A stretch of 64,000 nucleotides of DNA from Podospora anserina (Eukaryota), in NCBI GenBank assembly GCA_017654855.1, contig CM030337.1, forward strand, positions 1,798,001 through 1,862,000, written 5' to 3'. Both the position numbers and the translations under genes were made by a program. The notes beneath the pieces are model-generated. The model was not told the DNA's origin. It ran no database searches and was given only the letters and a program-made list of their open reading frames with translations. Numbering within the stretch: the stretch's first letter is position 1; each line of letters opens with the position of its first letter. This document shows positions 964-37,215 of the stretch, one piece after another.

Positions 964-1610
964 TCAATTCCCCAAAGAGAGCCCCAGAATGCGCTGCAAA
1001 AGACCCGAAAACCCCCCAGACTCTTCCTCCTCTTCCGTTTCCGGAGATCCTGCAGCTTGCAGTCAGCAACTTCCTCCCTGTGACAGCATCGAACAAAGGC
1101 CAACTTACGCCCAATAACATCAAACTTCGACTTGGTCTTTCCTGGATCAATCGCGCGAGCCGGGATCCCATGCAAACAAATGTACGCCCCTCGCTTGTGA
1201 GATTCTTGCACTTTTGAATCGATCTTGCTTCCAAGACCAAACCGATCGACAAGCGTGCTAAGCTTGAAAAAGTGGACATCTGTGAGCGTTGACGTGTCGA
1301 TGGTGAGAATAAACCAGTCGTCTTCACCTGGCTCGCTTCTGCCCCATCTTTCCAGACAGAGTGCCCATCTTACGGCGTGCTGCTCGACCGAAAAGAACGT
1401 TATGAAAGGTGTCGGGCGCGTGCTACTCCAGTCGAAGTGATCCGCAACGGCGTCTTTGAAGAGTTGAGTAGCTCTGATTCTCGCGAATTGCGTGGTTGTG
1501 TCCCGGGCTTTGAGTCCACTGGTCTTGTTGTACAGTCCTGTATTTCCTCGGTATTGCACCCGGTAAAGATAACGCGGGAGGTCGCCGGGTGGGTGTCGAT
1601 ATGTGTCCAT
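964..1610 (-). CDS. DUF7587-like / ART-like protein, copy 1 (apparently intact; one intron 1108-1050)
   Basis: MDTYRH...LYRVQYRG...PTPFITFFS...AVRWA...ILTIDT...GAYICLHGIPARAI. Intron GTAAGT...GCTGAC...CAG gives an acidic tail RSPETEEEEESGG. An upstream in-frame ATG at 1706 is possible. Confidence 0.7.
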
Positions 1611-3510
1611 TGTTGATGTGCTCTCGACACTTTCTCGCCAAGCGGAAATTTCCTTGGATAACTCAGGTGCCAATAAGTAGTTGTTGAAGGGGAACGCCCC
1701 TGGCATTTAAGCCTTTGATCGTCGGGGGTTTCAATGTCGAAACTTCACCTGATAAGATGCGCAGTTTAACTAGCGAAGGATAAATAGTTGTGTGATTCAG
1801 CAGAGCCCCACGCACATGGTTGGTCGAGAGAGACACACATCGATGTACCTAAGTTAGCTAACCCAACAGACTCGGGGCCAGATAACAGAAAGAGAAGGTG
1901 TTGCGATGGTCTAGTGGTCGCCCAGCCTCCTCAGCCCAGAGCCTTTGCCTGGCTCAGTCTGGTGGTTGCTTGGCTTCACCAAACTTCGTGACAAGGCTGT
2001 GACGGCGACCTAAAAGGGGATAACATTAGTTCCAGGGCTCTCCGAGCTGAGAGCCAAGACAATAGCAGTCTGCAGCCAGAACCACTGCCTTTTCCCTCAC
2101 TACCACCACCACTTACCAATACTACGTATTGCCCACACTTCGATGCCTTCCATACATCCCACTCTCAATTTGTGGTCGGGTACTTGGGAAGGTCAAGCGG
2201 GAATGGGCGATGTGTGGAGTTGCTGTTTGGAAAGGTCGGATGGAATGCTGTGGGTTGCTACTGATTTGGGCTATATTTCGATCAGATCTCCAGCCGGCCA
2301 GTCAGTGCTGTCCATGGAGAAAGGGTGAAGGTAAGATAAATAACAGCCTCATTCCTTGCCAAGTTGGTAGGTACTCAGATCGCTTCCATGGCGAGCTTTT
2401 CCCTCTTGAACTTTTGGCTTCGAAGCAGGTTGTTGGCCTTGTAGCGGGGCGAACAGTGATGGTTTGGTAACAGCATTATGAACCACATTACCTCATCTTC
2501 AAACTTCTTGATCTACCTACAATATTATGCTGCGGGCTGTAAATCCTGTTGCATTTTAAGCCATTTCTACCTGTTTCAACCTGGGCAGAATTTGAGTACC
2601 TAGGTAGCCAAGTTTGCAAACGTGGGTACTACCTACGGACCTATGACATGGCCATACTGGCTGGGTGTGGTGCTCCATGCGCCTGCCTTTTCGTCAGACC
2701 CACACTCTGGTTGCTCTTTACGGCTTTGTTTTGTTTCTATAGCTTTTTCGTTCTGTTAGATTTCATCACCATCACCACTTTTGTCGTCGTATTTTGCCTC
2801 ATTTTTGGTGCCAGTGACCCTGTCCCAGAACTAGGCCTACCCTATGCGAAGCATGGGGCTACACGGCCAATAATTTCGTAGGCTTAGCGAGCAACATAAG
2901 GTTAGCAACGCATGAACCCGAACGGATTTCAAGACCACATCCATCACCGAATGGCCGAACAGGCAGCGTTAATGTTAATGGTAGTGCTAAGCTACCTAGG
3001 TTTGATAGGCTAACCTATGTCGGTAGATAGATTGACACGAGACCCCTACAATCCAAGATGAAATCTCCGTCGGGCTTTCATATCACTGTGAAAAATCAAA
3101 GGGCTCACAATTCCACATGCTTAGTGTCTGTAGCAAAACGGGGGGAGGCAAAGGCTTCCACACTTGGCAACGGAGACATACCCAAAAGGCAGGCCTATCC
3201 TTGGGAAGATCTCACAGTTATCCAAGCTAGCTGGCGGATAAGAAAATCTCGTTCATCATACCTTCCTAAAGAGGGACCGAGTGAAGAAGGAACAACACGG
3301 AGATTTACCTAGGGAAGAGATCTTCGCACCGCTAGGTGGATGAGAGGGTTCAAGCAGAAGTCAGTGACTGCCTACCTAAGCTGACCACAACTCCCAATAG
3401 CAAATTCCTTTCTCTTCAACTGTCAGCTTCTCTCAATCTTACTTCTTCGAGCTGATCCTTACCCACTACCTCACTGAGAACATTTCAGTCCATCGATAGC
3501 ACCGTCCATC

Positions 3511-4071
3511 ATGGTAGGCGCCCTTCTTTGGTATTACACCGATGAGTAGGTACTGACAACTCGATCAACAGAAGCTCACCTCGCCGCCCCCATCCTTGCC
3601 GCCCTCACCGGCATCCAAGGCGTCCTCTCCGCCCCGGCAGCAAACTCCACCTCTGAGGCCCCCGATGCGATTGACTTCCTCTTCAAAAGACAAAGCAACT
3701 TGAGAGGCGAGTGGGACTGCCAGTTTGTCAACGCGGGCTGGAACCATGCAGCTCTCCGGGCCGACCACCAGGCATTCAACAGTGTCTTTGGCGATGCCCG
3801 CCTTACAGCGGCAGCGGGATAGTGCTACGTCGGCAGGTGCAACGGACGCGACTTTACATGGTGCAACACGTCTGCTACCACACGGACCGAGGTTTCCAAC
3901 CAGCAAAACATTGTCGCCGACACCAATCCCGGCACCGGGAAGAACTGCATGTATGAAAACGGGTCTATTCATGTGGGATACTGGTGGGGGGCATCAGGAA
4001 GGGCTCAGGTATACCAAAGCGGATATTTGGAGATGCTAGATGAAGACGGGAAAGGCGTCGGTTGGCAGTGA
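3511..4071 (+). pseudogene. degraded small secreted Cys-containing protein gene
   Basis: ATG|intron|AAGCTC..., then a frameshift into LAAPILAALTGIQGVLSAP...FLFKR (signal peptide + Kex2 site) and mature QSNLRGEWDC...AAAG*CYVGRCNGRDFTWCN with an in-frame TAG at 3820-3822. Confidence 0.6.
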
Positions 4072-5167
4072 TGTGGGAGTTTGATGATGAAGATTTTTTG
4101 ATGTTGGTAGTAAAGGTCGTAACAAAGTATGTTATACAAGACTTTGGTCAGTAATTTCGTTCATTGATTATCTGTGAAATGACACACATGGTCCAATGTC
4201 ACAACTTGCAGCCTGTTAATTAAGGCACAACTTCACTGAAGGAAGCTTCTGGCAATCACATCAACACTGAAACTTTTGCTTCCACGCCCCACTACATAAC
4301 ATTAGACGTTGTCAAAAAGCTTGAGCCTATTGGCTCTGCACTGCAGTATAAAATCGCTGCCGCCTTTCTCACTTCATGCAACCTCCTCTTCTTCTCGTCT
4401 TCAGTAGGTATCATTGTACAGGTAAGGTACGTACTCCTTCCAACGTCGCTCCCCATCAAAACATCTTATCCCCTTATACTCAAAAAGAAATGCGTCCTCA
4501 GAATCCAATTTCTTATCATGGAAAAAAATAAAAATCTTCCGACGGTGTTCGAACTGTCGTACGTAGAAGCAAGCGCGCATGCCTCGAGTATTTCATCATT
4601 GAACACATCAAACCATTTGGCCGGTTTCGTTGAACTGGATTGAGTTTATATGAGAGCCAAAGAACTTGTGGGCAAATCTGTTGATATTAGTGATGCCTAC
4701 TGGAAAAGAACTGGGAAAGGAAGGAAAAGGCCGTGGCTCAGGCTGCAAGAAGAAGAGCAAGGCAGTGAGTGGATGGTCAGTGCCCACGCCGCACAGTTTA
4801 AATGTGTTCCTGGCTCCTTCTTGGGGAAGGAACGAACGTAGAAAGATGATCATGGGGGCGGAAGGGGCGGTGGTTTCCAAAGGGCAGGTGGGAGGGGACC
4901 ATGTCAGCCGAAGCTTAATCGAGGAAGGAGGGACTGGGGAGCAGTGAAGTAACTTGACGGTGGTGATATCCAAAAGCATTGTCACAAAACTTGCTGGAAG
5001 CGACATCAGCTTGGGGTTGATAGAGATCTCACAAAGAATTTGCTGGATCGGGGTCTGTCACTTTCTGCAGCTGCTGGAAGGTTGGTTACATTGAACTTAT
5101 CAAATAAAGCGGATGAAAAACCAACAACAAACACACTCGCCCTCCTCTCCTCAAGTCTTCCCAGAAC

Positions 5168-12693: not shown

Positions 12694-13083
12694 GGCTTGC
12701 GACGGTACTTTCTTTTCTGGTTCTGCGGTACAAATTTACGGTCAGCAGTCATTCTGCAATGCGATTTATCAGTTAGATTGAAGTCCGATCTTGTCATTGG
12801 ACTCACTTCAACCCTCTTTTACAAGCTCCTGGAAGGATTTTCTGCAGTTGGATCCCAGGCTGAATCAGGCAGGTGGAAATATCGTGGGATGGACGATGCC
12901 ACCCCATCGCCCCGTAAGCTTCCGGAATGGGACCGGGAATGATACTGTTGAGCGGGGGGCCAGAGCCTCGTTGGCAATAAATACATATCATGTCCTTAAT
13001 TTTTTTTATTTAAAAAAAAGCAGCTTTCCTTTGTGAGACTCATCCTGTCTAAGGTACCTTAGAGATCCAAGAATTTAAACATC

Positions 13084-14553: not shown

Positions 14554-15055
14554 ATGGAGCTATACCGCTGTTTATCGCTTCCCGATTTCCTCTATCGGGT
14601 CCAATACGTAGGGACTAAAACCGAAGAAGACTCGAATGGTGGACTCATGGCTCAGCACCGTGTACCCCGCAGGGGCTTTGGACGATAAGGACTTCAAACA
14701 AGCAGTTTACAACCAATTCGACTGGGATTATAAAGGCCGCACTCCCTTCATTTCCTGCTTTTCAGACAAAGACTTCGCCATCAAGTGGGCCTGTAAAATC
14801 ATGAGATCTTCACGGAGATGTTCACAGAAAAAGGAGTGGACCCTTTTTACTATCGACACTTGGCTTCTTTCGCACTCTGTCTATGTTTACAAACTGAGCA
14901 GATTCATCGACTATATGGATATTCGGACTCCCGGTAGGGCGGAGGAAGTTTACAAACCAGGGGCCTATATCTGTTTACATAGCATTCCTTCTGACGCAAT
15001 TGTTGAGGCAGAGAAATGGATGAATCCTCGCGGAGCATCAAAATCCCCTCTATAG
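14554..15055 (+). pseudogene. DUF7587-like / ART-like protein, copy 2 (frameshift near 14650)
   Basis: MELYRCLSLPDFLYRVQYVG...GGLMA in one frame continues as STVYPAGALDDKDFKQAVYNQFDW...TPFISCFSD...WA...TIDT...GAYICLHSIPSDAI in another; a GTAAGT donor follows the stop. Confidence 0.7.
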
Positions 15056-19762: not shown

Positions 19763-20466
19763 ATGGATCCACGTTGGTATCATTGCTGTGAGCCGATTTT
19801 CCATCAGAGATTTACCGAGTCCAATATCAAGGGAGCCAAATCGATTACACCTCTGAAGGCTTGAAGGCTGCCAAAACCACCAGCTACAGGAACTCAAGCG
19901 CCGGCCAATCTCAGTTCACACGGGATGTTCAAAGCCACTTTACATGGGGCTATCATCGACCCTCCCCATTCATCTCGTTCTTTTCGGACAAAGACTATGC
20001 TGAGAACTGGGCTTGCAGTGAAGCCTGGCGTAAAGGCAAGCCTGTCGAAGAAAAGTGGACTCTCCTGACCATCGATACCTCGAGACTTTTTGAGGAAAAC
20101 GTCTACTTATTCAAGCTTGGCACGCTGGTCGAGGAGTTCAAGTTGGAGATACCAAATGGAGCACAGAAGCATATCCGACATGCGTACATTTGCCTAAACA
20201 AGATTCCGATTACCGCGATAACGAAGGAGAGGAACCCCAATGAGGTCAAAGAGGGTGAGCGAATGGATTGATCTCATCACTCTTATAATAGTTGCTGACT
20301 GAAGGCTGCAGATCGTAGGATAGCGAAACTGGAGGTTAAAATACAGGCTGATATAGAGGCTGACGCGAGGGCGGAAACATACTTCGGTTATGATAGTGAC
20401 GACTCAGCGATTGTGAACAACTGCAACGACAACATCATGAGGATCATTGAGGGGGACTGGGATTGA
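19763..20466 (+). pseudogene. DUF7587-like / ART-like protein, copy 3 (frameshift near 19790; intron 20255-20311)
   Basis: MDPRWYHCC is out of frame with ADFPSEIYRVQYQG...GLKAAK...HFTW...PSPFISFFSD...WA...TIDT...AYICLNKIPITAI; exon 2 ends YDSDDS...IMRIIEGDWD*. Confidence 0.7.
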
Positions 20467-22014: not shown

Positions 22015-23402
22015 ACATGTCTTGTACGCCTTTAAGGGCCCAATTGGTATATACTTAGTCTACATCATCCTGTTACTGAGGGACATTTTCCGTCCTGTTT
22101 AGAAAAGCTCGCGCTCATGGGGACTCGGACTCCTTACTATGCATTGACGTCTTCCGGCGTGGGAACTCGCAAATTACCAAAGGAGGAATTCGTCCTGAGT
22201 ATTATCTTCTCCCCTTGCTGATTTTGCACAACACTTTGGAGCCTCAAATCGTTTCACTTCGACCACTTTGCTATCTCTATATTTGGAGAACCTGAAAGTG
22301 TGCACTTGCTAAAAGTTTCTAAACTGGAAGACCAACCGACCCAAAGCAAGCTCTTGTGAACAATGGTACTCTCGCGTACATGCAACCTGTCAGTCTAACC
22401 TAGCGTACCTGCTTGACCACTCACAACCTGCCAGATTCACATACCCAAAATAGAATTATGAAGCGGGCTGGTGGCTGAGGTTTGGCGGAAGCAGAATAAG
22501 AAGGTGCAGGCGGACGGAGCAGGGCTCGGGATTTTCCCCTGCCAGCGGCATCATGCAAAATGCCGCGGTTGTGAGCCCCGCATAATTCTGCACAAAACCA
22601 CCATGCAAATCCTCCAAGGAAGTTACCATTATTCACGTAGCTCACGGCATCTCCGCCAAAAATGGTAACGTCCTTGCCCGGGCCTATCCAGTAACGTCAG
22701 TATATGGTGAAGTAGATAGCGATTGGAACGAAATGTCGACGTTTTGTGAGTATGTCCAGCGGTCTCCTCTCTGCCATTATAACGGGAATGACCGCGTTAA
22801 TTCCTTCCAAAGATGAAGTCTTGTCTCGACTTTTAGTGAAATGACATCAAAGGGCCGAACCACTTTAACCTGGCTCGCTCCCTAGCCCATCATTCCTTGT
22901 GACGTGATGGTAAAAAGCACTGCCTGCCCAATCGTGAAAGAAGTGCAGCTGACCCTCTTCCCTTTTGCCCCGCGGTGTTCCCTGCAAGGGTCCGGAAAAT
23001 CTGCCCCTGGTTTACCCCTGAGCACCTCAGGGTCACCTGTCTCTTAGAGACGGTTGCGACCATCTACTCCTCACCATGGACTTAGGTTCTAGATGTTCGG
23101 ATTTCATTAAGGGATATCCTTTCCAGTGTGTCATCGAGCATCGGTACTGATTCGCCGGTTGCTGAGCCTACTGGAATATATTTAAAGTTATAATCTTAAT
23201 ATGAATAGTAATTATAGAGGGTTTAATAACGGGCTACTGGTACGCCTAAGGAAAAAACGGAAGTTATGATTTGTTTTGGTTGTATAGCCGAATGGTCCTT
23301 GGACCCACTTTAGCTTAGGGTGATCCTCACTGCGCTCACCTTTTGCTTACCTTGTGAGACCAATACGGACTGAGCCAAAAATTTTGTCGGGTGTGACTAT
23401 AT

Positions 23403-25165
23403 AGGTAAGGTCTGCATTGTTGGTGCCGGTGCTGATGGTTTTTATACCGCGATGATGCTTAAGTTCCGGGGCATTGACTTCGACGTCGTCGAAGCCAGCG
23501 ACCATGTCGGAGGGCGGTGTGCTACACACAGCTTTGTCGGAGTCGGCCCCGACTGCGCACATGATTATTATGACATGGGTGCCATGAGGATCCCCAAAAT
23601 CGGCTCGATGAAATCGACACTCAATCTAATCAAGAGCCCGTCCCTGCTCAACATTCCTGACAGTCTGGTTGAGTATGTGTACACGGTTTACACGGTGGAC
23701 TGCCAGGGTAATCCGACTTACTATGAACCATTCTGCTACTGGTACCAGAATAAGGACAGCCCCGAGTGCGTTTCTCCAAACTGGTGATAGTCCTACACAA
23801 ATGTTGGCAGCAGCTGACACTTTCATTTTGCAGTGCGTCGAAGTTCGAAAATGCTATCAAAGATGTGCTCAAGGAGTTCCAGTCCGAGGTACAAATCTAC
23901 TTCGACAAGGGATAGGACAACTACCCCACCAGGGATTTTCTCATGTTTCCGCAAGTCCTGTCATACGCCGATACTATGGCGGGCGAGCTAGCTGACAGGT
24001 GTGTCAGCACTCCATATATGGCGTTTCATATAACTCACAGTGTTTCTTAGTTCCACCGGCCTCTTTTAACCGGGCACTCACCGAGACTTTGTCGGACTAT
24101 GCAGACTTCGTCCAAACTGACCAGAAAGGCTGGTTTCGCGTCGAGGGCGGCATGTCGTTCGTCACTGATACCATGGCAGCTCGTCTGAAGAGCACCATCT
24201 GGCCCCAAGCCGGCGCCACATCCATTGATGTGTCGCTCTCCACACCCGCTGTAGCTATGTCTTTGGCTTCTGATGGAAGGACTATTCAAGTCACTACAGG
24301 CGGTGAGAAGTCCTCAACAAATTCCTACGACATGGTCTTCAACACCACAGCTCTAGGGCCTCTCCAGCAGATGGATCTCTCAGGTCTCAATCTCGACCGT
24401 GACATTCTCGACGGCATTCGTGCCCTCAGCTACGACCGGGCTACCAAAGTGGCCATCAACTTCAACAAGCGCTGGTGGACGGGTTTCTACCCCAATGCCG
24501 ACGCCATGCACCGCGGTGGCGGTGTATCTAGCAGCGACTTTCCCCTCGGCTTCACTGTCTATCCCTCGTGGGACAACGGCGACGGCACCAACGTTCTCAT
24601 CGCCTCATGCGCCTGGGCCCAAGATGCGTCCCGCATGGCAGCCCTTGTCCCGGACTACACTGATCCCTCAACACCAACACCAAGCTACGCCGGCCCCATC
24701 GCCGCAGTCTGCCTCGAGGGCCTGGTCAAACTCTGGGCAGGCCGACAGGAGGCTCCGACTTTGAAAGATCTCCACGATTACTACATCACCCATTACGCCT
24801 GGGCCTGGTCCCATGACCTGTGCACCTGTGGTACCTTTGCTCTCTTTGGACCGGGACGGTTCCAAAACATATACCCAAAGTTCCAAGAACTTCTCGCCAA
24901 TTCGCAGCTTGCCATCTGAGGCTAGGCTATCAGCGCGCACTACGCGTGGATCTCCGGTGCGTTGGACAGTGTTCTCTTCTCTGTGATCAAGTTTCTTGCG
25001 GCAAGGTCGACAGAATCGCCGGATGTGGCAACCAAGGCGCTCAAGTTGCTTGCTTCGGACTCTAACCCAGATAAAAAGCATTTTGAGAAGAACGAACGTG
25101 GTGAGCACCCGGAGGGAGATGAGAGGTTGGCGTACTGGTGTGCCGAGGCTAGCGCGATGAAATGA
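23403..25165 (+). pseudogene. flavin amine oxidase / L-amino-acid oxidase pseudogene
   Basis: KVCIVGAGADG, VGGRC, DYYDMGAMRIP, WFRVEGGMS, FNTTALG, FALFGPG. In-frame TGA 24917 and TAG 24923 fall in the GEA-x-S-A-H-x-A-W motif; the 5' end is missing next to an AT-rich patch. Confidence 0.85.
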
Positions 25166-25475: not shown

Positions 25476-26103
25476 TTAGGTAAGGTTGTCGCAGAAGTTG
25501 GTGCCACTGAGATCGCGCCAGAAGGTGAAGTCGATGGTCGGGAACAGGGTGCCGGAATGATAAAAGAAATGCACCCAGCCCGTCCTCCACCATCCGGCGT
25601 TGTCGTCCATGAACCCGTTGAAGGAGTCGACAAGGGATGCACCGTGATTGACCTCAGCATCTGCAAGCGAGGTCAGTTAGCTTTGGGCATTGCAGTATGA
25701 TATAGTATGTGATCTTACACTTGTAGTTGCAGCCCGCAAGTACCGCCTGGCCCGACACGGCGAAGTACTGTGTTGTGGACGGAACATGACTTCCAGCGTT
25801 GAAGAAGTTCTTCCATCCTTGGGTGCATGCATTGTAGTCGGCTTGGTTTGGGAAAGTTCTCCCCGTTGCACCCCACGAGTTCACCTGTCTTCTGAGCTTC
25901 GCGCTGCGGCGAGGCAGGCTACGGTTCTCAAGGGGCTCTCCAATGACTGCGTGGGTCGAGGGATCAATCTCGACCGTGGTTGTGTTGCCGTCATCCCCAA
26001 CGGTGACTTCGTAAAAGCCATTTGGGGTGCCCTCAGGGACAACGAAACCGAGAGCGGTGGTCGCAACCAGGGGGAGAAGGGCGAGGAGGGCTTTGAACTG
26101 CAT
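25476..26103 (-). CDS. small secreted prepro-protein (one intron)
   Basis: MQFKALLALLPLVATTALG signal, KLRR processing site, mature QVNSWG...DYNAC...LAGCNYK|YAEVNHG...GWVHFF...TFWRDLSGTNFCDNLT*. Confidence 0.8.
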
Positions 26104-27005
26104 TTTGGCAGTCAATGAGAAGTGCGAGCCGGAAAGTCAGGTGAGAAAGTGATGCTGATCCGATGATGAGTAGTGATGAGGATGACAGACCTCATGGAAG
26201 TAGGAGAGGGGGACCCTTATATAATTTTTCGCAGCGAGTAAACATCTCTTTGTGTCTGTCACTACATATCCACATCGAACACTTGGCGGAAAGGCATAAA
26301 CCTGCTTCTGTGCTATTGGAAAAGCCTCAGATGCCGCTGTCAACCATCAGCTTGGCAAAATCAGGTACCTTACAAAGTTCCAGGTTGTCATACCAAAGCT
26401 AACAGTGGTCTATAGTCGCATTTGTGAAACCTACTTGCCTATTGAGAGACAATATAGACAGCTTCATTCCTGGTGGTTCTATCACCTGCTCGTAGTCTTA
26501 CGCCGAGAAGTCGCACGAACCTTGGAAGGCTTCGTCTACTGCATATAACATCGTCGTACCAAATCCTACATCGCGTCAGCCTCGAATAGAACACCGTCAA
26601 GCTGGCAGGTGGATACTCTGTGATACCTTGGAGAATAACCAACATGTACGTCCCAAGCCGCGATGGATATTCATGGATTTCAATAGTTCAATTGTCTCAT
26701 GTCTTTGACAGACCAGTGGTAAGTGCCTGTATCTCTAAGTGTTGGAACAACCAACATGCCGGACCGGAATTACTGAAAAATTCTTCAAGGTCATAAATCC
26801 GAGCCCACAATTCGGCCAAACACAGTTAGCCAGGGTAAGGAGAGCGGCGTTTGACCTTATCGCCTGCCATGGGAATTAGTGATGAAGAAGTTCGGTGTCC
26901 ATATTTGGAACTACCGGTTAGAACTGGTTGCACCGAACTCAATAGTTCAGCTGTGGACATGACGAGCAATCCTTCTGCGACATCTTCAACTCTTCAATGC
27001 CAAGA

Positions 27006-29225
27006 TCAGATGACAACAACCTCTTGCCTCATACCGTGACCCTCATCAAACCAATAAGGCTTCTTCTCAAAGCCCACATCGCCCTCAAGATAGCCCTTGC
27101 ATCCCATCGTCCCCACCCGCCGGTATGTGTCCGGCTGACCTTCAACAGGAACCAACAAAATCCCTCGTCCCTGTGTCATATTCGGCGACCCCCCTCTCTC
27201 GTCATACAGCTGCACCATAGCAAACTGCATCAGGTTCTCCGGCGCCTCATACGTGCAAACCTCAATGCAAGACATCACAATGTCTCTCTTCACCGGCCAC
27301 TCATCCGGCACATCAACATACCAAGAGAGCCTATCATCCCCCGGCACCTCACCAGACTTCACCCAATCGCTCTCCGAATCCCCAAGCGCCCACCCATAAC
27401 CGTGATCATGTTTACCGGTCCCATTCCGTTTCCAAACAACCTTCTTCACTCGTCCCCTCAGCCGAATGAAACCTCCCTTGACCTGCCCCAACGGATTACC
27501 CCCCACAAGCGTTGTCTCCGCATGAAGCAACTCACAAGCGTATTTATACCCAATACTCCCATCCAACACCCCCTGATGCAAAAAAATCCTAAAATGCCCA
27601 TCCAAACTCGCCCAACTCCAACTCGGCGCCCTGTACCTCTCCGGCCTCTTAAATTTGGTCTTCACATCACTAACCCTATGCGCCGCCCACAACAGCTGAA
27701 AAAGCATATCCCCCCTCCACAACCCAGCCAAATACTCCCCCACCCCTTCCTTCGTCCTCTTGTACTCCTCCGCAATAGCCATAACAGCCAACAACTTATC
27801 ATCCCCCACCGTCAACTCCCTCGACGTATAAGCCTCCACAATCACCCCCCAAGCCAACGGATGCCCCACCCCGCCCAAACTCTGATTTCCCGGGTCCAAG
27901 TTCTTGAAACTTGCGCCTATGGAATCATCAATCGATCTCAAAGTCGTAATTGGCTCCTCTAGCCCCCCATCTGTATGCCTCGACTCCAAACAACAAAACA
28001 CCATCCCCCTGTTTCCGTAAGCAAGCACCCGGGTGGATAACTGTCCCTCCTGGAAGGTCCAAGCCCTGGTGTAAAGAGGTAACATCTCCTGATCCCGCCT
28101 CAAGCGCACTGGCATGGCGATAGCTTGTCGTATCTCCCCTTCCTGCTTTCCAACTGGTGAATCAACCCTTACATTAAAGACATACCCCCTGTCGTGAACC
28201 CTCGGACGTAGGAACCCGTCAAGGCTGGTAGAAGCTACACCAGCAGCAATGGTGAGGAATGCTCCGCGGTAGATGAGGTGCATGTTGGAGATTTCATTCA
28301 TTTTGTCTTGGTCCGAGTCTTGAACAATGCACAGTGCATCCACCCAGAGGTATTTCATTCCTACGCCGTGGGTTACGGTTAAAGCGTCGATGATGGTCAA
28401 CGGGAGAACATCAAGAGGGATGTTGCGGGAGTAGGTTCCAACGTTCCTTTTGGTGGTCTTGCCGGGTTGGTCGCCGCCCCAGCAGTAGCTTAGGGTTGCG
28501 TAGGGGGCTGGGGGTGGGTTGCTGACAAGACGAACGATGAGGTGTGGTTCATCTGGGTTTGGAGAATTGGGGCGAGTAACGACTTCCAAGAGGCGGGTGG
28601 GCATGTGGCTAAGGTTGAACTCGCGGCATTTGGTGTGGTTGGCGGAGCAATCTCGGAGATATTTCCTGGCTCGGGAGTAGCTGAGCTCAGAGTTGGGGAG
28701 GAGGTTGGGTGGCGGTTGGGGTCCGAACAGCTCGTGGGGCTTTTGACCTGGAACATTGTAGAGCACCAATTCCCCCAACCTATTGTTCATTTTGTAGCCC
28801 AGCTTGAGTCGTTCCCAATCGACCTCGAAGAAGTTGACAATGGCTGGCTGCTTCAAAGTCCGCTCGACCCAGATCGGGTTGTCTGGACCTGAGGTCATGC
28901 TGACAAGGTAGGCCCCTTGACGAAAGGCAGAGAATAAAGCGCAGTTGTCTTTCAGAGCAGAGATGACATCAGCCTCAGTGAAGCCAATTTGACCGTCATC
29001 TTTGCCGTCTTTTGAGTTTTGTCTCATATCGATCGTGATTCTTGAACAGTGGCGACATGTGTGAGGGGAAACATCTTTCTGGTCCTGGTCTTCCTGGTCA
29101 TCGGTCATCGGTGGAAGGGCATCGTTGACCACGTGGATAAGTGGCCTTGCTTGGCTCTGAGAACTACCAGCTGCTTGATTCAATCCTGGACTTGTCGGCA
29201 GATTGTTGACTGGAACTAAGACCAT
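27006..29225 (-). CDS. HET-domain (heterokaryon incompatibility, TIR-related) protein
   Basis: PTRLL, YATLSYCWGG, YLWVDALCIVQD, EISNMHLIYRGA, PLYTRAWTFQE, YLAGLW, RAPSWSWAS; single exon of about 739 aa from ATG 29225. Confidence 0.93.
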   Translation of the reverse strand: MVLVPVNNLPTSPGLNQAAGSSQSQARPLIHVVNDALPPMTDDQEDQDQKDVSPHTCRHCSRITIDMRQNSKDGKDDGQIGFTEADVISALKDNCALFSAFRQGAYLVSMTSGPDNPIWVERTLKQPAIVNFFEVDWERLKLGYKMNNRLGELVLYNVPGQKPHELFGPQPPPNLLPNSELSYSRARKYLRDCSANHTKCREFNLSHMPTRLLEVVTRPNSPNPDEPHLIVRLVSNPPPAPYATLSYCWGGDQPGKTTKRNVGTYSRNIPLDVLPLTIIDALTVTHGVGMKYLWVDALCIVQDSDQDKMNEISNMHLIYRGAFLTIAAGVASTSLDGFLRPRVHDRGYVFNVRVDSPVGKQEGEIRQAIAMPVRLRRDQEMLPLYTRAWTFQEGQLSTRVLAYGNRGMVFCCLESRHTDGGLEEPITTLRSIDDSIGASFKNLDPGNQSLGGVGHPLAWGVIVEAYTSRELTVGDDKLLAVMAIAEEYKRTKEGVGEYLAGLWRGDMLFQLLWAAHRVSDVKTKFKRPERYRAPSWSWASLDGHFRIFLHQGVLDGSIGYKYACELLHAETTLVGGNPLGQVKGGFIRLRGRVKKVVWKRNGTGKHDHGYGWALGDSESDWVKSGEVPGDDRLSWYVDVPDEWPVKRDIVMSCIEVCTYEAPENLMQFAMVQLYDERGGSPNMTQGRGILLVPVEGQPDTYRRVGTMGCKGYLEGDVGFEKKPYWFDEGHGMRQEVVVI

Positions 29226-29719
29226 CTCGATGTAGGTGATCGTGTGGAGCTTGAGGATATCAGGAGTTGATGTTACTCTCCGAGGGAAAGAGCAACATTC
29301 GAGCGAGGCCTTATTGCCAAGAGCAAGATTCGGGTCCCAACCATGTGGAGCGGGTTGTTGGTGAGTTGACCTCCAACCAACCAATAGCAGTGCAACAAAT
29401 GCGTGAAGGATCGATCCTCTGCATGTTCCAAACAGGTAATAAAATTCCTAACTCCCTTTTGGTTAACATTGCACATTGCAATAAATTTGCCAATCAAAAA
29501 TATCACGAACAATAGACAGAGTTCTCCGTTACTAGAAACCCCGACTGTGATTGAGGTGGCCAGCTCGAGCTGAGGCTCTGCGCCCAACTCTGACCACTAG
29601 GTAGGAATGAAATCATGCTAGTGAAATATCTCGTGTCTGAGATGATGAAATTAATTCGAGAAGAAAAAAAGAAAACACAATTAACCACCATACCTCTGAG
29701 ACACAGCCTTCATTGCACA

Positions 29720-32700
29720 TCACCATGTTTCATCATCATCATCATCATCATCATCCTCCTCGTCGTCTGCAATCGGTCCCGCTGCTTCCGCCTTTCCCGA
29801 ACCCTCTTTTTTCTTCAGTTCAGCCAGCCTCAACTCTAGCTTCAGCCGCTTGACATTATCATCATCCTCGTCATCAGTGAACATTTCCTCCCGATTACGC
29901 CGTCGATTGTGTCTCCTGCCAAGATCTTCCATATTCGATACCGGATATACCGGAGGGTTTCTCCCTCTTCGACGACTTCCCCATGGCGCGGACGAATCGG
30001 GGGGAAGTGTCCCTGGGTTTTTGTCTTGCCGCAGCAGGTCACGTCCGGCGATGACGCTGTACGGGTCGTCTTCTTCTTGGAAGCCATGAATGTCGCGAAT
30101 GTAGTCATCGAAGTGGGCAGATGTTTGCGCGACGCGTTTGAAATGCCCAACTTTGAGGAGCGGTCCTTTTAGCTCAGTGTTTTCTCCGCCTTCATAGAAG
30201 TCCCAGTTTGCCAGTGCTGTGGCTGTCTGGAAAGCGTTTTTCATCTGCCTGCCATTCCATCTCCGGGATGGCTTGTGTTTGTTACGCTCCCAGTGCTGGT
30301 CAATAAAGCGTTCAATCTTCTCTTCTTCTATGTCCATGTCTATTCCGCTCGCTTTGAGACGGGACATGTTCCTCTGCCAAATGTCCTTGGCAGACTTCTG
30401 GCTGAGTTTTGGGTAGTAGAGACTAATGTGTATGCGTGATCGAAATGCTTCATCGAATTCTCCGACCCTGTTGGTGGTTAGGATGATGACGCCTGCGTAA
30501 TATTCTAGAACGCGCAGAAAAACTGTGAAACTAATCAACAAGCTGCTCTTGGTCCGATCTATACTTGCAAAACAGCATACCTGAAACTAGACTATTCCTC
30601 TCAATGTCTCCCTTTTCTCGCTTCGCCAAGAAGACATCGGCCTCATCCAGAAGCAACACACATCTCCACTTCTGCGCCAACCCACAGAAGGACTCCAATG
30701 TCCTCTCAGCTTCTTTTGCTGTGGTGCCGATATCACCGCATGTGATAGGTAAAAGTGGTCTGCCCAACTCAGCGGCGACACACTCAGCTGTGGAAGTCTT
30801 GCCCACACCAGGCACCCCGTGCAAAAGAATAATCAACCCTTTGCCTTTGCCAGCGACGAGATCCATAGAGAATGTCTCATGCGCAATACCGCTCTGCTTG
30901 GGTACCCGAACATGATTCTTCACGAGGGCCTGAAGGAGTGTTTTGTGGCCGTCAGGCAGCACCAGGTCCTCAAAGTGCGATGTGAGCGACCGGGGGGGGA
31001 TTTCGCTCACATTGTTGATGTCGAGGGCAAACCACCTGTGGTCGAGCAAGGAGTAGCCATACACGCGGGTCGGAAGCAACAGAGCCCATTCGTCAGTGCA
31101 GCCGGCTCTTCGGAACTCTTGAATACTCCGCAGTTCTGCTAACTGCAGAAAGTCGGCGTGTCGGTCAGCCTCGAACTTGGAGTCATCAAAGACGTCGGTG
31201 ACCCAGCTGTTGTCCTGCTTTTCGGGTAACGGATCGAATGTTTCTCGCTTGTCGGCCTTGGTCGGGCTGTAGATGATACTTCCGCCCAACTTTACGGAAA
31301 ATCTGTGGTACAGGTTCATGTCCTCTCTAAAGAATTCGATACCTGCCGCTTGATCCACCATGACCTCGCAGTGGAGCTTGCTTATATGTTAGGTACGTGT
31401 CTATATATGGTATGAAACTCAATGGACTAGGGAGATAGGAACCAGCCGAAAGCTTCATACCTCGGTGTCAGCTATCACATAGTTGTAAAAACCGCGTGTT
31501 GTCTGATTAGACTCTCGAATGGTAAACCCGTCATATTTCCTGTGTGTTCCGGTCGCCAGTTCTGTGAACTTCTTTCCCCGATGAAGGAGTATCTCCTGAA
31601 TTTGTGAATCATTAGGGTGGAGAAAAGATGGATACAGCGGCAATATTTTGACGGGGCGTGCCCCAACGTAGCGCGAAATGACGAAACGTTTTGGTCTTGG
31701 ACCCATCCGGAAACCGTCGAAGTCGATGTGGAAGGAGTCGATGATGAAACTGGTGCTTTCGTGGTCCGAGGCTTTGACAATATCGCGGCATCTTTCCTCT
31801 GACTCAGTCTCCGAATCCCATTCTCTATCGCGCACTGGGTCGAAAGAGCACTTCTTGCCAGAGTCAAACACTTCACGGCCACCGGTGACGTGAAGGATCT
31901 GCAACGCCTGGCATCGACGGTGATCATCCCGATTTTGGAAGAGGTACGATGTCTGCCCCGGTCGAAAGAGCTGCCACAGGTTCTCAAAAGCGATTTCTTT
32001 TATGGTCTTGTTGGAGATCTGGCGCTTGACGTCAAATATATCTGCCATGTCGTGATCCATGAACTCTATAAGACACCGAAACTCGTCCCTCTGTCGTTTA
32101 GCGCGATCCGCTATCTCCCTCAGTGTCTCATGCTCCGTCTCAGCCGAGATTTCATCTTCTGACGTCTCTTTTTCTTGAACGACTTCAGCCTGGGCATCAG
32201 CTTCGGCTTGGTCGTAGGCTGACTCAAGATCGGCGTAGAACTGTCGTATCTCCGCTTCATGCCCTACAAGATACTTGAACGGACGTACAAAAACGTTTTG
32301 AGTCTCGGTAAGCTCCTCCCCGATACACTCCCCTAGGGCGTGCAAAAGGTACTGGGAATTGATGGCGAGCCGATAAGGCACGTCTAGCTGCTGAGACACC
32401 TCTGCATTTTGAGATGATTCACCTTTTTTCTTTCTTATCGCACTTTCCCGTCGCAGCTTCCGTAGGTTGGCCTTGACATTCACCTTGGATGAGGTAATGA
32501 GAACGCTTTGGTCCAGGTCGAGTTTGCGCCCCTTTTTGACTCGTCGCCATTCTTCGGGAGGGACTCGTGTTATTTTAGCTTCTTGGGTCTTTGCTGGATC
32601 GGTATTCTTTGTTTCATTCACTGAAGTTGTGCCTTCTTGGGTACCGCTGGTCTCGGGTTCTTTTTTGCTTCTGCGCTGTCAGCAACATGGCACCAAGGCA

Positions 32701-32840
32701 CCTAAGCTGGACTGGAATGGAGAGATAACACACCCTGGCTGAGATGATGGGGGCGAAGACTCATCGACGACGTCCTCAACATCGCTTTTATTGAGGACAT
32801 CGGTGGAAGTGGAAGGAGGGTGATTTTCCACAAGAGACAT
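29720..32840 (-). CDS. fungal AAA+ ATPase with long N-terminal (DUF7025-like) region and lid; about 3 introns
   Basis: Walker A GVPGVGKT, Walker B LLLDEAD, LEYYAGVIILTTNR, DEAFRSRI, WNGRQMKNAFQTA; N-half FENLWQLFRPG, IDFDG; acidic C-tail encoded by a (GAT)n run. Confidence 0.9.
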
Positions 32841-33428
32841 CTTGATGAAAGTCAGGAATCATTCGTTGCTGCTGTATGCGTTGAGCTCAGGCAACAGTCA
32901 TAGTGCGGGGTCAAGGGTACCTAGGGTATTTAACACTGAGGTGGATAAGGTTTTGCTTTCGCTCGTATCGTTAACAGCGTGACGGGAGTGCCACCGGACA
33001 GGAACGGGGCCACTCGCCGTGTCGCCGCCTACGCGCTACTTCTTCAAGAGCCGAATGGCAAAAATGTACTGTTCTCGACCGTGTCCCCGCTTCTACAGCA
33101 AGGCTCTGAACTCACCGAACACAATCTGGGCACGCTACCTACACAAACTTGAGTGTCATCGAACGATCTGTAGAGGCGCAAAAGTCCTCAGCCAATGGAA
33201 AAGAGGTCATCCTGCAGGTCCTGCATTCGTATCTGTTTCATGTTTGTGTGCCGCACCGTGGCGGGCATGGTGATACCACACTCACACACTGATAGATTCG
33301 TTACTATTCTCCCCACCTACCTATCAATCACACAGCAATTGCAAAAAGAAAACCCCTATTTTCCTTGGTCATCTTGGTTGCCTTGCGACTCAGTCATTAC
33401 AAGCTTCTCCCTTGAAGTTGCAGGTATC

Positions 33429-35717
33429 ATGTCGACAAAAGCGCCGAACACTAATCGAGGTCTAGGAACTCTAGTGGACAGCTATGTTCGCAAAAGACTC
33501 CGTCGTGACATTCACCCTGCGCTTGCCAAGGTGCGGGACAAATCTGAGGCAGAATCAACATTCCTGAAAGCCACAGGCGCCGAACTCCGAGTATCGTGCC
33601 ATACAGCTGTGGGTGCGAGCGAAGATGGAAACCAGAACCCAACGTCCGTTGCCATGGTGGCAGGCGAAAATGACTGCGGCATCTCTCTGTAGGTCCATGA
33701 CCCAATCTTAAGACTCACCCAATGGTGTTATTGACATGGAAGTAGTGAAGAGATATACCGAGATGCCACACAAGAAAAGCTGCGGTTTCAATTAGCAATC
33801 GCTGATTATGAGAAGCTAACATCAGGACCAAAATTCGGTTCAGGAATCACCACCAAGCCTTCGTTTACTTGGGAGGATGTCTTGGAAGAGGCCCAGCGGG
33901 CTGCAGACACGTATTCGGAGGCTTCTGGAATGTGGAACAAGATTCGAAAGGGTCTTTGCAGCTTCGGGCGAAATGCAAAGGCCTTCGATGCCTGGGCCAG
34001 CTTGCTACCGTCTCAGTCCGAATACCTATCTGTTCTGTGCGGAGGATTGAAGTTTATCTTTGGGGTTTGTATTTCCTGGTGATCTGATTAGGTAGCCTTA
34101 ATCTTCCGCGACGTACTGATGTCTTTCATTCGCAGGCTGCTGCACGCTTGCACGACCTCAATTCGGATGTTTGTGATGCTCTGGCGGAAATTCCGATTCT
34201 ACTAAAAAGCACACATCTGGTGTTGGGGATCTTCAAACGCTCCAAGGACCTCCATCAAGCAAGTGCGGACCTTTATTCTGTGATAATAGCAGCACTGCAT
34301 CACATTGTTTTGTGGTATAGAGAGAAAGCCATCAGTGAGTACACGTTTCCTCTCTCCATTCTCTTCCGCATTGCTGAAACTAAATGGTATCCAGAAACGC
34401 TTTTCAAGAGTATCCTAAAGCAGGACGTATATGCTATACAACTTACAGAGCTCCTCAGCAACGTTCGCCAACAAGCTGACCGCTTCGAACATGTTGTTCG
34501 TCTCAACTCTTACGAGCGAATTGTGACTACGTCCGAGATGGTACGAACCCAAGGGGTCCGGCAGGATGAAAACCACAGCATACTTGTCCGCTATCTCGAT
34601 GATGCAAACAATGAGTTACACAATTTTCGGGAGGAATTCAGTTCCAAGGCGGTGGACTTGCAGTCGCAGGTCAGTGAATTGACCAATGTGTTGGCAGCGT
34701 TCTTAGGCAGTGGTGCCTGGATGAATGCGAGGACGCATGATGGTGAGCTACCTCTTAACAGATGTCAACTGGTCAAGTAGCTTATATGCCCGGTTCTTTT
34801 GCTGATATCCCCACCCACCTACTCTCACAGTGAGAGGTCCCTCTCTTCCGATTCGCAAGGCAAAATCCGAGTCAAGGCTCACACGAGATTCTTCGCCCGA
34901 GTCACTACCTCATGGCTCTAAAACCAGCCACAGGCTCGAGGAGACCATATCCACACTAGACTATGACAGCTCAGTGATTGAGAGGGACATAGTCACCAGT
35001 TTGCGCAGCGTATGGCAGGTCCCCATTTCAGATCAAGACCGCCTTGTCGCGGCCATACAATCACCAAAGCTCCAGAGCTGGATAACGGAAACAACATCCT
35101 CTGCCCTGTTCCTCAACTTCAACGCCACTCGCAACCACCACACGACATCGTTCGTCGCCGCAAAGTTGGCCAATTCAATCCAGTCATCTTCCGTCTTGGT
35201 GGTCACCTTCTTTTGCGGTCCACACACGGATCGACGCAGCGAAGATCCAGACTTTGGCGTCACGGGCATGATGCGCAGTTTAATCAGTCAGCTTCTCTTG
35301 ACATATCCAAATTTTGGTCTACATACCCTCCGTCAGATCCAGGAAAAAGACATGGATGACGTTGAGGACCTCTGCGAAATATTCTACCTCCTCGTTGCCC
35401 AGCTCCCACGTCACAAGGCACTTTTCTGCATTTTGGATAGTGTGACCAATTTCGAGGACAACAACATTTTGCGAATGGAGAGCGAGATGGTCATGTGGCA
35501 ATTGATGGAGATAATTACCTGGACGGCCGAGTACGGGTGTTGCTTCAAACTGTTGTTGACGAGTCCTCGAAACAGCCGGGTGCTCTACAAGCATCTGTCG
35601 AACCCCGAGCAAGACTCGATTTGGCTACCCGCGAAGGTTCCCTCGCAGGGGGGTTTCACGAAGGGGAAGTGGGACGGGAGTATTGGTGGGGAGGTTGATA
35701 AGCTGACGATTTTTTAA
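33429..35717 (+). CDS. truncated NACHT-like (STAND) protein: helical N-terminal domain plus NTPase domain lacking Walker A, no sensor repeats
   Basis: N-term FTWEDVL...LLPSQSEYLSVLCGGLKFIF..AARL; NACHT-like elements LQSWI, VTFFC, GMMRSLISQLL, FCILDSV, FKLLLTSP. The P-loop position reads FLNFNATRNHHTTSF with no GxxGxGKS/T. Confidence 0.75.
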
Positions 35718-36084
35718 GAGGGCTATGGGGAGACTTATTCAAGAAGGATGTTTGTTGACTTTGCTGGTATCTCATTGGAGAGATGCTACACTTAACTAGC
35801 TTACCTACTGCGTATACAGCTTGAAATATACTTGGGCAACCCACCACAAACAGAAACATGGACATGTGATCAAATATCAGTGGTGAAGTTGGCAATTATA
35901 TATACTCCTGCCACCTCCACGCCTAGACCCTGCTCGGCTCAACAACTGACTTCTAGCTATAGTGAAAGAAAACAAAGATGCAGAAGATAGCCTCTGAGAC
36001 GCAAAACAAGCTTCCTGTAAATCAGCACTCTCGTGATCGCTCTCGGCTTATACCACCTCTTCACACCCATTATCTCGAATTCAT

Positions 36085-37215
36085 CTAAAGGCCCCAGTCC
36101 AAAACCTCGGTGTAGTCCTTCTCAACCTCGACCTCACGGCCAACAATGGCACCGCTGCGAACCTTGAGCGTCTTGACGGTGTCGTCGAAGCAATCACCGG
36201 TGACGCTTGGGCCGCAGAGAGGAAGAACCTCACGGGTAGACATGTCGCAGAACTTACCCTCGTGCAGAGAGACGAGATCGGGCCCCCTGGAGCTGTCGCT
36301 TCCGCAGAGGGTGACGGCGCTGTGCTCAGGGCGGGAAGAGCGGACAAGACGGGTCTCGTTGAAGGCAGGGCGTGAGCCGGCGAGCTTCTCACGCTCCTCG
36401 CTTCCGGGCTTCACGGGACCAACGGCGATGCCCTGCTGGGGCTCGCTGCTGCGACCGGCGAGGCCTCTCTTGCGGGGGGTGACCCAGTAAGAGATGGTGT
36501 TGGGCTCCCAGTTGGTGTACCACTTGAGAGAGGGGTTGCTGGCGCAGTAGCTGGATTTGAGGTTAGATGTGATTCAGGGGGTGAGGAGGGGTGGGGATGG
36601 TGAACTTACTAGCCGACGTTCTTGCCTCTGTTCCGAGATTCATCAGCAAACTCATGAATATGAGTCTGGAAGGCTGTCTTGGGCCTGTCGCCATTGCGAT
36701 CGATCCAGGCGCAGTTGAGGGTCTTGCCGCTCTGGACGATGTTGGAATAATACCTATGAGTTTGTTAGGCACTGGTCCTATTGCTCGCAGACGAGAAAGA
36801 GTATCTCTTACCAGTCCTGGTTGCAGGACGAGCTGTCCGCCCAGTTACCAACCCAGCCGTACTTGGACCCGTCGGCCCAGCTGTTGGTGATGTACGCGAT
36901 GCAGATCGCATCGTCGTTGCCCGTGAACAGGGCGTACGTGGGCTGATGGGGCTGGGACAGCTGGACCGTCACGTCCTTGAAGGAGCCGTGGTTGATCTTG
37001 CCAGGGTCATACTTGGCACCGATGAACTGGCCGGCCTCATTCCAGACACGGATATCGGGCGCATCACCACCGGCGTTCGAGAGGCCGCTCGGACCATCAA
37101 GACCGACGTGGATGCGGAACTTGGTCTCATACTGGTTGGGCCTGTCCGGGATGTTGGATTGGATGAACCCCAGGACGGTGAGGATTCCCGAGAAGACTCC
37201 GAAAGCGGTAGCCAT
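36085..37215 (-). CDS. Cys-containing hypothetical protein (2 introns), uncharacterised fungal family
   Basis: MATAFGVFSGILTVLGFIQ...NDDAICIAYI...YGWVGNW...CNQDW|YYSN...CAWID|YCASN...SAVTLC...GPDLVSLHEGKFCDM; strong codon bias; TATA-like element near 37325. Confidence 0.75.

Follow-up and report, generated by a model that had tools for sequence, protein, structure and literature searches.

Comparative sequence evidence for a conserved divergent gene pair encoding an AAA ATPase and a P-loop-less NACHT-like protein in Podospora anserina

The window analysed here is a 64,000-nucleotide stretch of the Podospora anserina genome (assembly GCA_017654855.1, contig CM030337.1, positions 1,798,001 to 1,862,000). 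Positions 27006-35717 of this window are filled by three intact genes (3/3): a HET-domain gene (Pa_6_2290, 739 amino acids (aa)), a gene for an AAA ATPase (Pa_6_2280, 970 aa) and, divergent from the latter, a gene for a NACHT-like protein, here called gene C (Pa_6_2270, 670 aa). Our comparisons support the conclusion that the AAA gene and gene C form a real pair, conserved in several classes of Pezizomycotina. The HET gene is a lineage-specific neighbour outside this conserved unit. An initial annotation, made from the letters of the window alone, had joined all three genes into one candidate immune module; the two-gene AAA/pseudo-NACHT part of that interpretation stands, while the HET gene as a conserved partner does not. 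The pair suggests an undescribed two-gene module for cell death or defence. We favour, with confidence that is about evenly balanced, the reading that it is an old, co-inherited switch resembling a split NOD-like receptor (NLR), in which the AAA protein would act in trans on a catalytically dead scaffold.

Gene models and RNA support

Splice sites were first chosen by eye and then compared with public RNA contigs, which come from four runs (X1, X3, X4, and X10) of four studies with the source label 'RNA?'. All seven coding introns, with GT..AG borders (CT..AC on the minus strand), are spliced out in contigs of 4/4 runs. The contigs of the four runs thus come from spliced RNA. The gene identities follow from shorter records of Podospora anserina S mat+, which are 100% identical over their own length. 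The two genes of the pair have the following features.

29720-32840 (-): AAA gene Pa_6_2280, DUF7025-AAA-AAA_lid_13, 970 aa; splice joints in 4/4 runs, exact match to P0349, Pfam
32840-32734, 32667-31461, 31376-30581, 30522-29720 (-): exons of the AAA gene, from RNA contigs
31614-32009 (-): DUF7025, residues 256-387 (Pfam 1.5e-14), inside a folded N-region of residues ~131-595
30795-30818 (-): AAA Walker A, GVPGVGKT, residues 625-632; K631 in 40/40 orthologs
30636-30656 (-): AAA Walker B, LLLDEAD, residues 679-685; D682 and E683 in 39/40 orthologs, 1 gap
32841-33428 (no strand): divergent ATG-to-ATG spacer, 588 bp, with complete RNA-contig cover
33242-33295 (+): intron in the 5' untranslated region (UTR) of gene C, seen in X1 only
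33429-35717 (+): gene C, Pa_6_2270, 670 aa; splice joints in 4/4 runs, Pfam, structure model
33429-33688, 33746-34064, 34136-34334, 34395-34742, 34831-35717 (+): exons of gene C, from RNA contigs
35097-35168 (+): degenerate Walker A site of gene C, SSALFLNFNATRNHHTTSFVAAKL; Lys replaced, Ser retained at the Ser/Thr position
35418-35441 (+): Walker-B-like ALFCILDS of gene C; Asp invariant, NACHT 'DE' after the Asp absent

The initial annotation had placed the spacer at exactly these coordinates, had put the AAA ATPase at about 950 aa, and had seen no clear lesions in the three genes; the intact frames and the RNA-confirmed introns agree with this, and the ATPase of 970 aa has both Walker motifs intact. 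The AAA gene and gene C are both expressed, as judged from the spliced RNA contigs of the four studies. The spacer is bridged by contigs that span 32734..33688 in X1 and X4, and an X3 contig begins at 33041. Downstream of gene C, the bins at 35852-36500 have zero contig cover in X1, X3, and X4; we draw nothing from this gap.

Conservation of the pairing

A search with the N-terminal exon of the AAA gene gave 41 clusters, which were paired with the gene C list through source names. Consecutive locus tags or accessions for the two genes were found in 19 genomes outside the Podospora complex. These are Orbilia blumenaviensis (TWF730_001820/001819), Rhypophila decipiens (V8F06_002479/002480), Blastomyces percursus (ACJ73_03156/03157), Emergomyces pasteurianus (AJ78_01255/01256), E. 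africanus (ACJ72_03394/03395), and 14 further Onygenales genomes recovered by cluster look-ups (including FQN50_001460). Among those 14 are Paracoccidioides (ACO22, PADG, PABG, PAAG), Onygenales sp. (PD_40, PD_12, PD_10), Emmonsiellopsis (PD_5), E. crescens (GX50), two Histoplasma with consecutive accessions, and three Blastomyces. The pair is adjacent in 4 species of the Podospora complex as well. Contig size is the same for the two genes in 10 additional species, which we take to mean a single shared contig: C. samala, T. verruculosa, F. vanettenii, R. decipiens QBC37 (76 kb), Lophiostoma (17.6 kb), P. didyma, Xylogone, H. capsulatum G186AR, Rhexocercosporidium, and Amylocarpus (24.7 kb). 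Between classes, orthologs are 45-66% identical for gene C and 41-64% identical for the AAA protein. Neither list (28 C clusters and 41 AAA clusters, both from word-based searches) names Neurospora, Aspergillus fumigatus, or a yeast.

The gene order in Blastomyces is Mdm20-like, C, AAA. Among the Blastomyces annotations (P0024, P0412, P0413, and P0420), several are models of 1,436-1,684 aa in which the C ortholog is fused to the Mdm20-like 'cytoskeleton organization protein', and in others C is split, with fragments of 235 and 430 aa.

A metagenome scan with the ortholog alignment A1 returned five loci. Three of them (L001-L003) have little or no upstream flank and are uninformative about a partner. 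The other two, L004 and L005, hold a paralogous pair arranged head to head, in the same layout as Pa_6_2280 and Pa_6_2270; since they are near-copies, they are counted once. In L004, the gene with DUF7025, AAA, and AAA_lid_13 domains (4759..1115, minus strand) encodes a protein that is 26% identical to Pa_6_2280 across 903 columns of the alignment. On the plus strand, at a distance of about 2 kb, is a C-like gene, in which the N-domain exons (6915-7256 and 7274-7477) match the family profile and the pseudo-NACHT domain (7953-8882; NPHP3_N 3e-9, 31% identity) has no P-loop. Ten distant C-like representatives were also named; none comes from a species in the AAA list, so they are silent on adjacency. 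The conservation of the pairing that the initial annotation had set as a test is thus found both as adjacency across classes and as a paralogous head-to-head pair.

It could be argued that only the adjacency is conserved, because a bidirectional regulatory region was moved or kept together with both genes, and that the proteins are not partners. The divergent spacer is indeed transcribed throughout, and the transcripts overlap or abut. However, fungal gene order is generally scrambled between classes, and the pairing persists between them. It is also repeated in the paralogous pair, at 26-31% identity and with a spacer of about 2 kb, and the trees of the two genes are congruent, as described below. 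We consider adjacency without partnership to be very unlikely.

Shared history of the two genes

The maximum-likelihood trees of C and AAA, built for the same set of 16 taxa, have all starred splits in common. Both trees group Orbilia and Lophiostoma with the Sordariomycetes, apart from the Leotiomycetes and Onygenales, with 100 in the Shimodaira-Hasegawa-like approximate likelihood ratio test (SH-aLRT). Measured against the expected species relationships, this is a non-species-like tree. A clade of Sordariomycetes and Leotiomycetes, named after the trees were seen, is rejected by both data sets in approximately unbiased (AU) tests (p = 5.5e-4 for C and 1.6e-48 for AAA). As the two trees reject the same species-tree clade, the pair moved as a unit, whether by transfer or by an old duplication with sorting, either of which would explain the tree. 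The co-phylogeny proposed in the initial annotation therefore gave congruent trees for the pair.

Gene C and the P-loop-less family

The protein of gene C begins with a helical N-domain, DUF7708 (Goodbye-like), which is followed by a long helix, then by a disordered linker, and finally by a pseudo-NACHT domain. With exon 5 of the window, the NPHP3_N profile scores 37 bits, against a cutoff of 24.8. The nearest database protein is P. pseudocomata QC762_602270, in which 650/670 residues are identical; the ortholog P0001, with 650/670 identical residues, gives DUF7708 at 8e-12 and NPHP3_N at 31.2 bits against the same cutoff. The AlphaFold2 model of the gene C ortholog has a mean predicted local distance difference test score (pLDDT) of 76.7, with ~90 in the C-terminal domain, and shows bundles of helices, one helix of 100 residues, a disordered linker, and an alpha/beta domain with five strands. 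The part from residue 430 to residue 646 was compared with solved structures by VIA, and rows within 1 Z were counted as tied. The matches are ORC1/Cdc6 (Z 11.7, root-mean-square deviation 3.5, 168 residues aligned), MalT (11.3), and ZAR1 (11.0), together with the nucleotide-binding domains of NRC and RPP1. By this model, gene C has a predicted fold of the STAND/AAA+ type, together with a NACHT-type sequence signature.

The Walker A site of gene C is LFLNFNATRNHHTTSF, without GK[ST], and the site NFNATRNHHTTS does not match GxxxxGK[ST]. Walker B in NACHT proteins is defined as hhhhD[GAS]hDE (PMC12258605), which the corresponding FCILDSVTNF does not match, with TN in place of 'DE' (S.Y in the wider family). 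The strand expected to bear the sensor arginine reads CCFKLLLTSP in the 18 orthologs of alignment A1. The open reading frame (ORF) ends at 35717, about 20 residues past the nucleotide-binding-like fold, with no repeats; there is no winged-helix/HETHS module, and the model closes with one helix after the last strand. Gene C departs from an NLR in Walker A, the Walker B 'DE', the winged helix, and the repeats. As predicted from its sequence, it is an NLR-like protein reduced to a DUF7708/Goodbye-like helical domain and a bare nucleotide-binding-like fold.

The same features are found in the wider family. In all 18 gene C orthologs of alignment A1, GK[ST] is missing at the Walker A site, where the consensus is SSALFLNFNxxxNxxSTSF(I/V)AAKL, with Lys in 0/18; two residues never vary, the Walker-B-like Asp (D202) and the Ser that occupies the Ser/Thr position of Walker A. 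The word-based search with gene C gave 28 clusters, 27 of them with 577-690 aa and the 28th a fused gene model, and their source names belong to Sordariomycetes, Orbiliomycetes, Dothideomycetes, Eurotiomycetes, and Leotiomycetes. An exhaustive profile-free search returned 1,270 representative clusters at E <= 1e-3, of which 34 have E <= 1e-30, and most of the 1,270 pseudo-NACHT matches reach the C-terminal end of their protein. Among the best 150 family representatives, the pattern is S.aLhhNGN...SPhSFhCAKL, hhFChhDGhS.Y, and FKLLhTSP, and GxxxxGK[ST] occurs anywhere in 0/150 (8 are fragments missing the site, and 2 have a stray loop GK[ST]). In the 49 full-length members (24 orthologs and 25 distant), DUF7708 was detected in 49/49 and NPHP3_N in 43/49. 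The ESM Atlas returned only NPHP3_N-poor 'hypothetical' clusters and DUF7025 clusters.

The absence of GK[ST] at the site in 18/18 orthologs and of GxxxxGK[ST] in all 150 representatives shows that its loss is as old as the family and is not a recent lesion. The initial annotation had described a NACHT-like gene with a helical N-terminal domain and FCILD, without repeats, that had lost its P-loop. We find each of these features, with DUF7708 as the helical domain; the loss in the sense of a recent event is what fails, as the whole DUF7708 plus pseudo-NACHT family lacks the P-loop.

Goodbye-like domains, a class described for NLR N-termini, have a HeLo/MLKL four-helix core, and their death activity is unproven (PMC9815663). 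A recent preprint states that current InterProScan puts most NACHT proteins under NPHP3_N, and that curated Podospora NLR sets demand GxxxxGK[ST], so P-loop-less genes are excluded by definition (bioRxiv 10.1101/2025.09.29.679196). Since fungal NLR catalogues demand a working P-loop and C-terminal repeats, the P-loop-less family is invisible to them.

One position of gene C differs between the window and the RNA. Position 35496 is T in the window and G in the contigs of 4/4 runs, a change from Trp to Gly. The surrounding residues are VMWQLME in the window and AMGQLME in P. pseudocomata, so the window allele is the odd one out.

The AAA ATPase

Pfam finds DUF7025, AAA, and AAA_lid_13 in Pa_6_2280. 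Across the 40 AAA orthologs, the Walker residues K631, D682, and E683 are conserved as listed above, N721 is present in 40/40, and the arginines of the second region of homology are present in 39/40 (R731) and 40/40 (R733). Judged by these residues, Pa_6_2280 is a putatively competent catalyst and an ATPase of the classical clade. The closest solved sequences are Rix7, p97/VCP, NVL, Afg2, FIGL1, NSF, and Msp1; the nearest folds in Foldseek are spastin, Msp1, FIGL1, katanin, and p97, and the VIA match to p97 has Z 14.4 with 25% identity. The AlphaFold2 model has pLDDT mostly between 70 and 94 for residues 131-590, and the confident N-region of residues ~131-595 includes DUF7025. In the Foldseek and VIA searches with the AAA protein, both match lists were filled by the AAA module and held none for the N-region, which is no sign of a novel fold there.

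A paralog, P0068, is a single ORF of 887 aa that combines HeLo, DUF7025, and AAA (Logan contig, 3,494 nt). With HeLo in the same ORF as DUF7025-AAA, the AAA family is linked to a domain recognised for cell death in fungi.

At 29721-29772, the window has a GAT-type microsatellite that codes for the poly-Asp C-terminal tail of the AAA protein; it was flagged as a repeat at which reads appear truncated.

The HET gene and its link to the pair

The features of the HET gene and its transcript are as follows.

27006-29225 (-): HET gene Pa_6_2290, single coding exon, 739 aa; exact match to P0354, RNA-contig cover
~28047-28502 (-): HET domain, residues 242-393; Pfam HET 6e-27, full profile 1-146
29226-29447 (-): 5' leader exon of the HET transcript, spliced to 29694; seen in X1, X3, and X10, not in X4
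29448-29693 (-): intron of 246 nt from the AAA 3' end to the HET leader, GTATGG...AG; RNA contigs and sequence

The HET frame is open from stop to stop over 29447..27006 on the minus strand, with the ATG at 29225. The AAA and HET genes are co-oriented, and the distance from the AAA stop (29720) to the HET ATG is 494 bp, as the initial annotation had it for an intact HET gene at about 500 bp. The HET leader, which begins 222 nt before the HET ATG, is joined to 29694, 26 nt past the AAA stop, in 3/4 runs. At least some HET transcripts must therefore start in or upstream of the last exon of the AAA gene. A single contig spans HET and AAA into C in two runs, although contigs cannot prove one transcript.

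We dismissed the idea of an AAA-HET fusion protein, because the spliced RNA still contains the AAA stop and the exon that follows is in another frame. P. pseudopauciseta P0358, a fused AAA-HET model of 1,553 aa, has junctions that differ from the splicing in P. anserina.

The initial annotation had proposed a module of three components, with the AAA ATPase remodelling the pseudo-NTPase as an adaptor or decoy and the neighbouring HET protein as its dedicated executioner. Synteny of all three genes is seen across the Podospora complex (P. comata VBB84003-5; P. pseudocomata QC762_602270/80/90), and the spliced leader joins the AAA 3' end to HET, both of which would fit such a module. Outside the complex, however, only 3 of 2,246 HET matches are close orthologs, and all are from Sordariales: C. 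samala (86%), T. setosa (80%), and A. backusii (77%). Of these, C. samala alone has the ortholog on a contig of the same size as that of the pair, which is a further point for the module. For T. setosa and A. backusii, which carry this ortholog, neither the C nor the AAA list has an entry, which is weak evidence as these lists come from a word-based search. Conversely, T. verruculosa and P. didyma have the pair, and their best HET matches (41-44%) are on contigs of other sizes; in Onygenales, the gene flanking C is the Mdm20-like gene. A HET match at E <= 1e-4 was found in 0/5 metagenome loci. No motif is common to the HET, AAA, and C proteins, the best pairwise local match (E 0.089) being an acidic run; with no shared motif, there is no sign of an amyloid-signalling link. 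We regard the three-component module as decidedly unlikely. The HET gene is a lineage-specific neighbour, in the Podospora complex and probably in C. samala; it was recently added and, in P. anserina, is transcriptionally attached to the AAA 3' end.

Several further observations were made on the HET gene. In each of the 4 runs, one contig matches just the 729-nt stretch 27762-28490 at >=95%; to either side it continues as dissimilar sequence, with 255-nt loose ends. From these partial matches, a second expressed locus seems to carry a near-identical HET core, which a recent duplication or a gene conversion would explain. Near 27697-27790, the HET contigs of every run are interrupted. In six DNA-like runs with the same species label, which may be one strain, 0.99 of the sampled words are present. 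Downstream of the HET stop, the RNA contigs show a 61-nt minus-strand intron (CT..AC) at 26565-26625. Either the HET 3'UTR is spliced here, or there is overlap with the neighbouring gene on the minus strand, whose ORF of 160 aa (25654-26136) begins like a signal peptide.

Proposed mechanism and comparison with known systems

In the proposed split NLR-like switch, the dead NACHT-like domain of C would be a docking or oligomerisation scaffold. The AAA ring would provide an ATP-driven step in trans, assembling or remodelling this scaffold or gathering copies of it, and this step would govern the helical effector domain of C. The output would probably be membrane-directed cell death or defence. 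We infer that the two proteins interact physically, which of them controls the other, and that the output is cell death or defence.

Several results weigh against this reading. Outside the Podospora complex, 17/19 tag-adjacent genomes belong to one order, Onygenales, and gene orientation is readable just in the window and in L004/L005, not from tags. Beyond the orthogroup, the pairing is known from one paralogous pair in two similar contigs, and the clade for the AU tests was chosen after the fact. The Goodbye profile (PF17109) matches weakly, in 3/49 members, and the 'Goodbye' label otherwise comes from source names. Pore loop 1 of the AAA protein, TCGDIGT, which we take to be at this position from alignment with the classical motif (aromatic-hydrophobic-Gly), has no aromatic residue in 40/40 orthologs (position 653 is D in 34/40, H in 4, K in 1, and E in 1), which is atypical for a threading unfoldase. 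The AAA gene also appears broken in annotations of sibling species, where C is full length: P. pseudocomata has an AAA model of 432 aa and P. pseudoanserina has two, of 427 and 263 aa. If these truncations are real, the fungus tolerates C in the absence of AAA and can dispense with both genes. We draw nothing for or against from a complex prediction with full-length C and AAA residues 131-460, made with neither controls nor alignments, in which the scores were 0.14 and 0.01 against a mark of 0.34.

In the P. pseudopauciseta annotation, C has 317 aa and a truncated AAA is fused to HET in one model. All of these truncated, split, or fused sibling models (P0341, P0342, P0344, P0337, and P0358) were seen at the annotation level.

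The sibling models also bear on an antagonism like that of toxin and antitoxin, in which the AAA protein disassembles or restrains a self-assembling, membrane-active C, and loss or inhibition of AAA releases death. A parallel for such guard logic is Trip13, which resets HORMA proteins in the bacterial cyclic-oligonucleotide-based antiphage signalling system (CBASS). The strict co-inheritance and the common divergent spacer speak for this reading, and the AAA protein belongs to a classical clade of disassembly type. However, a broken AAA beside a full-length C, as in the sibling annotations, is not expected to be tolerable, and the pore loop lacks the aromatic residue. This explanation is quite unlikely.

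A third possibility is that the two proteins are an ordinary cellular pair of adaptor and AAA ATPase, in organelle or protein quality control, with no role in immunity or death. The fairly high identity between classes (C 45-66%, AAA 41-64%) is consistent with this, as are the housekeeping gene that adjoins the pair in Onygenales and the segregases among the classical AAA relatives. It accounts less well for the patchy distribution, with 28 C-ortholog clusters in the word-based search, for the non-species-like phylogeny, for the copies that are apparently decaying in sibling species, or for the kinship of C to parts of NLRs and the existence of a HeLo-AAA fusion. Such an ordinary role is unlikely, since the patchy distribution, the broken sibling copies, and the HeLo fusion are easier to reconcile with a dispensable module for conflict or defence than with a core function.

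The split NLR-like switch can be compared with several known systems. Like fungal NACHT NLRs with Goodbye-like/NACHT_N N-termini (NWD-type), gene C has a helical effector-type domain followed by an NPHP3_N/NACHT fold; unlike them, it is without GK[ST], 'DE', the sensor Arg, the winged-helix/HETHS module, and WD/ANK/TPR repeats. In the head-to-head plant NLR pairs RGA4/RGA5 and RRS1/RPS4, one partner can dispense with a working P-loop and depends on the other. The present pair is likewise divergent, with Pa_6_2270 lacking a working P-loop, but the active partner, Pa_6_2280, is a classical AAA protein rather than a second NLR, and its dead counterpart has neither sensor repeats nor an integrated decoy. 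Pa_6_2280 resembles the AAA segregases p97/Cdc48, Rix7, Afg2, FIGL1, spastin, and Msp1 in its intact Walker A and B, sensor 1, and two arginines. It differs from them in having a single AAA module behind the DUF7025 N-region of ~460 residues, in its pore loop 1 without an aromatic residue, and in its fungus-specific lid, AAA_lid_13.

Fungi have clusters of NLR and effector genes with amyloid signalling, such as het-s/nwd2 and PNT1/HELLP. As in these, an NLR-like gene here lies near a gene with a cell-death domain, but there is no common terminal motif, and the conserved partner is an ATPase and not an effector. Pa_6_2290 has a full HET domain, like the incompatibility genes het-6, tol, pin-c, and het-D/E; in contrast to them, it is known from sequence and RNA alone, and its linkage to the pair is confined to close relatives.

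In the literature searched, we found no description of the AAA/C pair, DUF7025, or DUF7708, and no mention of Pa_6_2270, Pa_6_2280, Pa_6_2290, or six Onygenales locus tags. PF24883 is mentioned there; PF24809, PF22942, PF23232, and AAA_lid_13 are not. A search for fungal NACHT proteins with a degenerate Walker A together with an AAA ATPase found nothing relevant. If the proposed reading is true, an AAA protein acting in trans on a dead scaffold related to MLKL/HeLo would be a new build of regulated cell-death switch, and two large families of 'domain of unknown function' would gain a function. P. anserina is a tractable, non-pathogenic model with established cell-death assays in which the pair can be tested, and the pair is present in the dimorphic Onygenales too.

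A broader and rather doubtful extension is that DUF7025-AAA with DUF7708/pseudo-NACHT represents a large, unrecognised class of two-gene 'split NLR' systems for death or defence in filamentous fungi. In that case the nucleotide switch would have passed to the AAA ring from a NOD domain catalytically dead since the origin of the family, and some members would fuse the HeLo death domain straight to AAA.

Surroundings of the locus in the window

The window has 151 ORFs of >= 110 aa. Leaving out the 16 inside the three genes, 135 were scanned, and profiles of HET, NACHT-type, AAA, and DUF7025 domains match 0/135 of these. The right 14 kb of the window is housekeeping (Syf1, V-ATPase D, Elp4/PAXNEB, and Rpb8). 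The left 48 kb is of accessory type, with hydrolases, three DUF7587 ORFs, tyrosinase, amine oxidases, and a short-chain dehydrogenase. Tyrosinase and amine-oxidase matches extend over several frames among 5171-6376 (-), 23374-24916 (+), and 10957-12939 (+); the same stretches include six overlapping or abutting plus-strand ORFs in a row that have no Pfam match. The initial annotation had taken many neighbours for pseudogenes; introns could account equally well for the frame-split enzyme ORFs near the locus. The three DUF7587 ORFs (E 1e-17 to 1e-19) form a local cluster of this family within 20 kb, at 729-1706 (-), 14612-15052 (+), and 19792-20268 (+).

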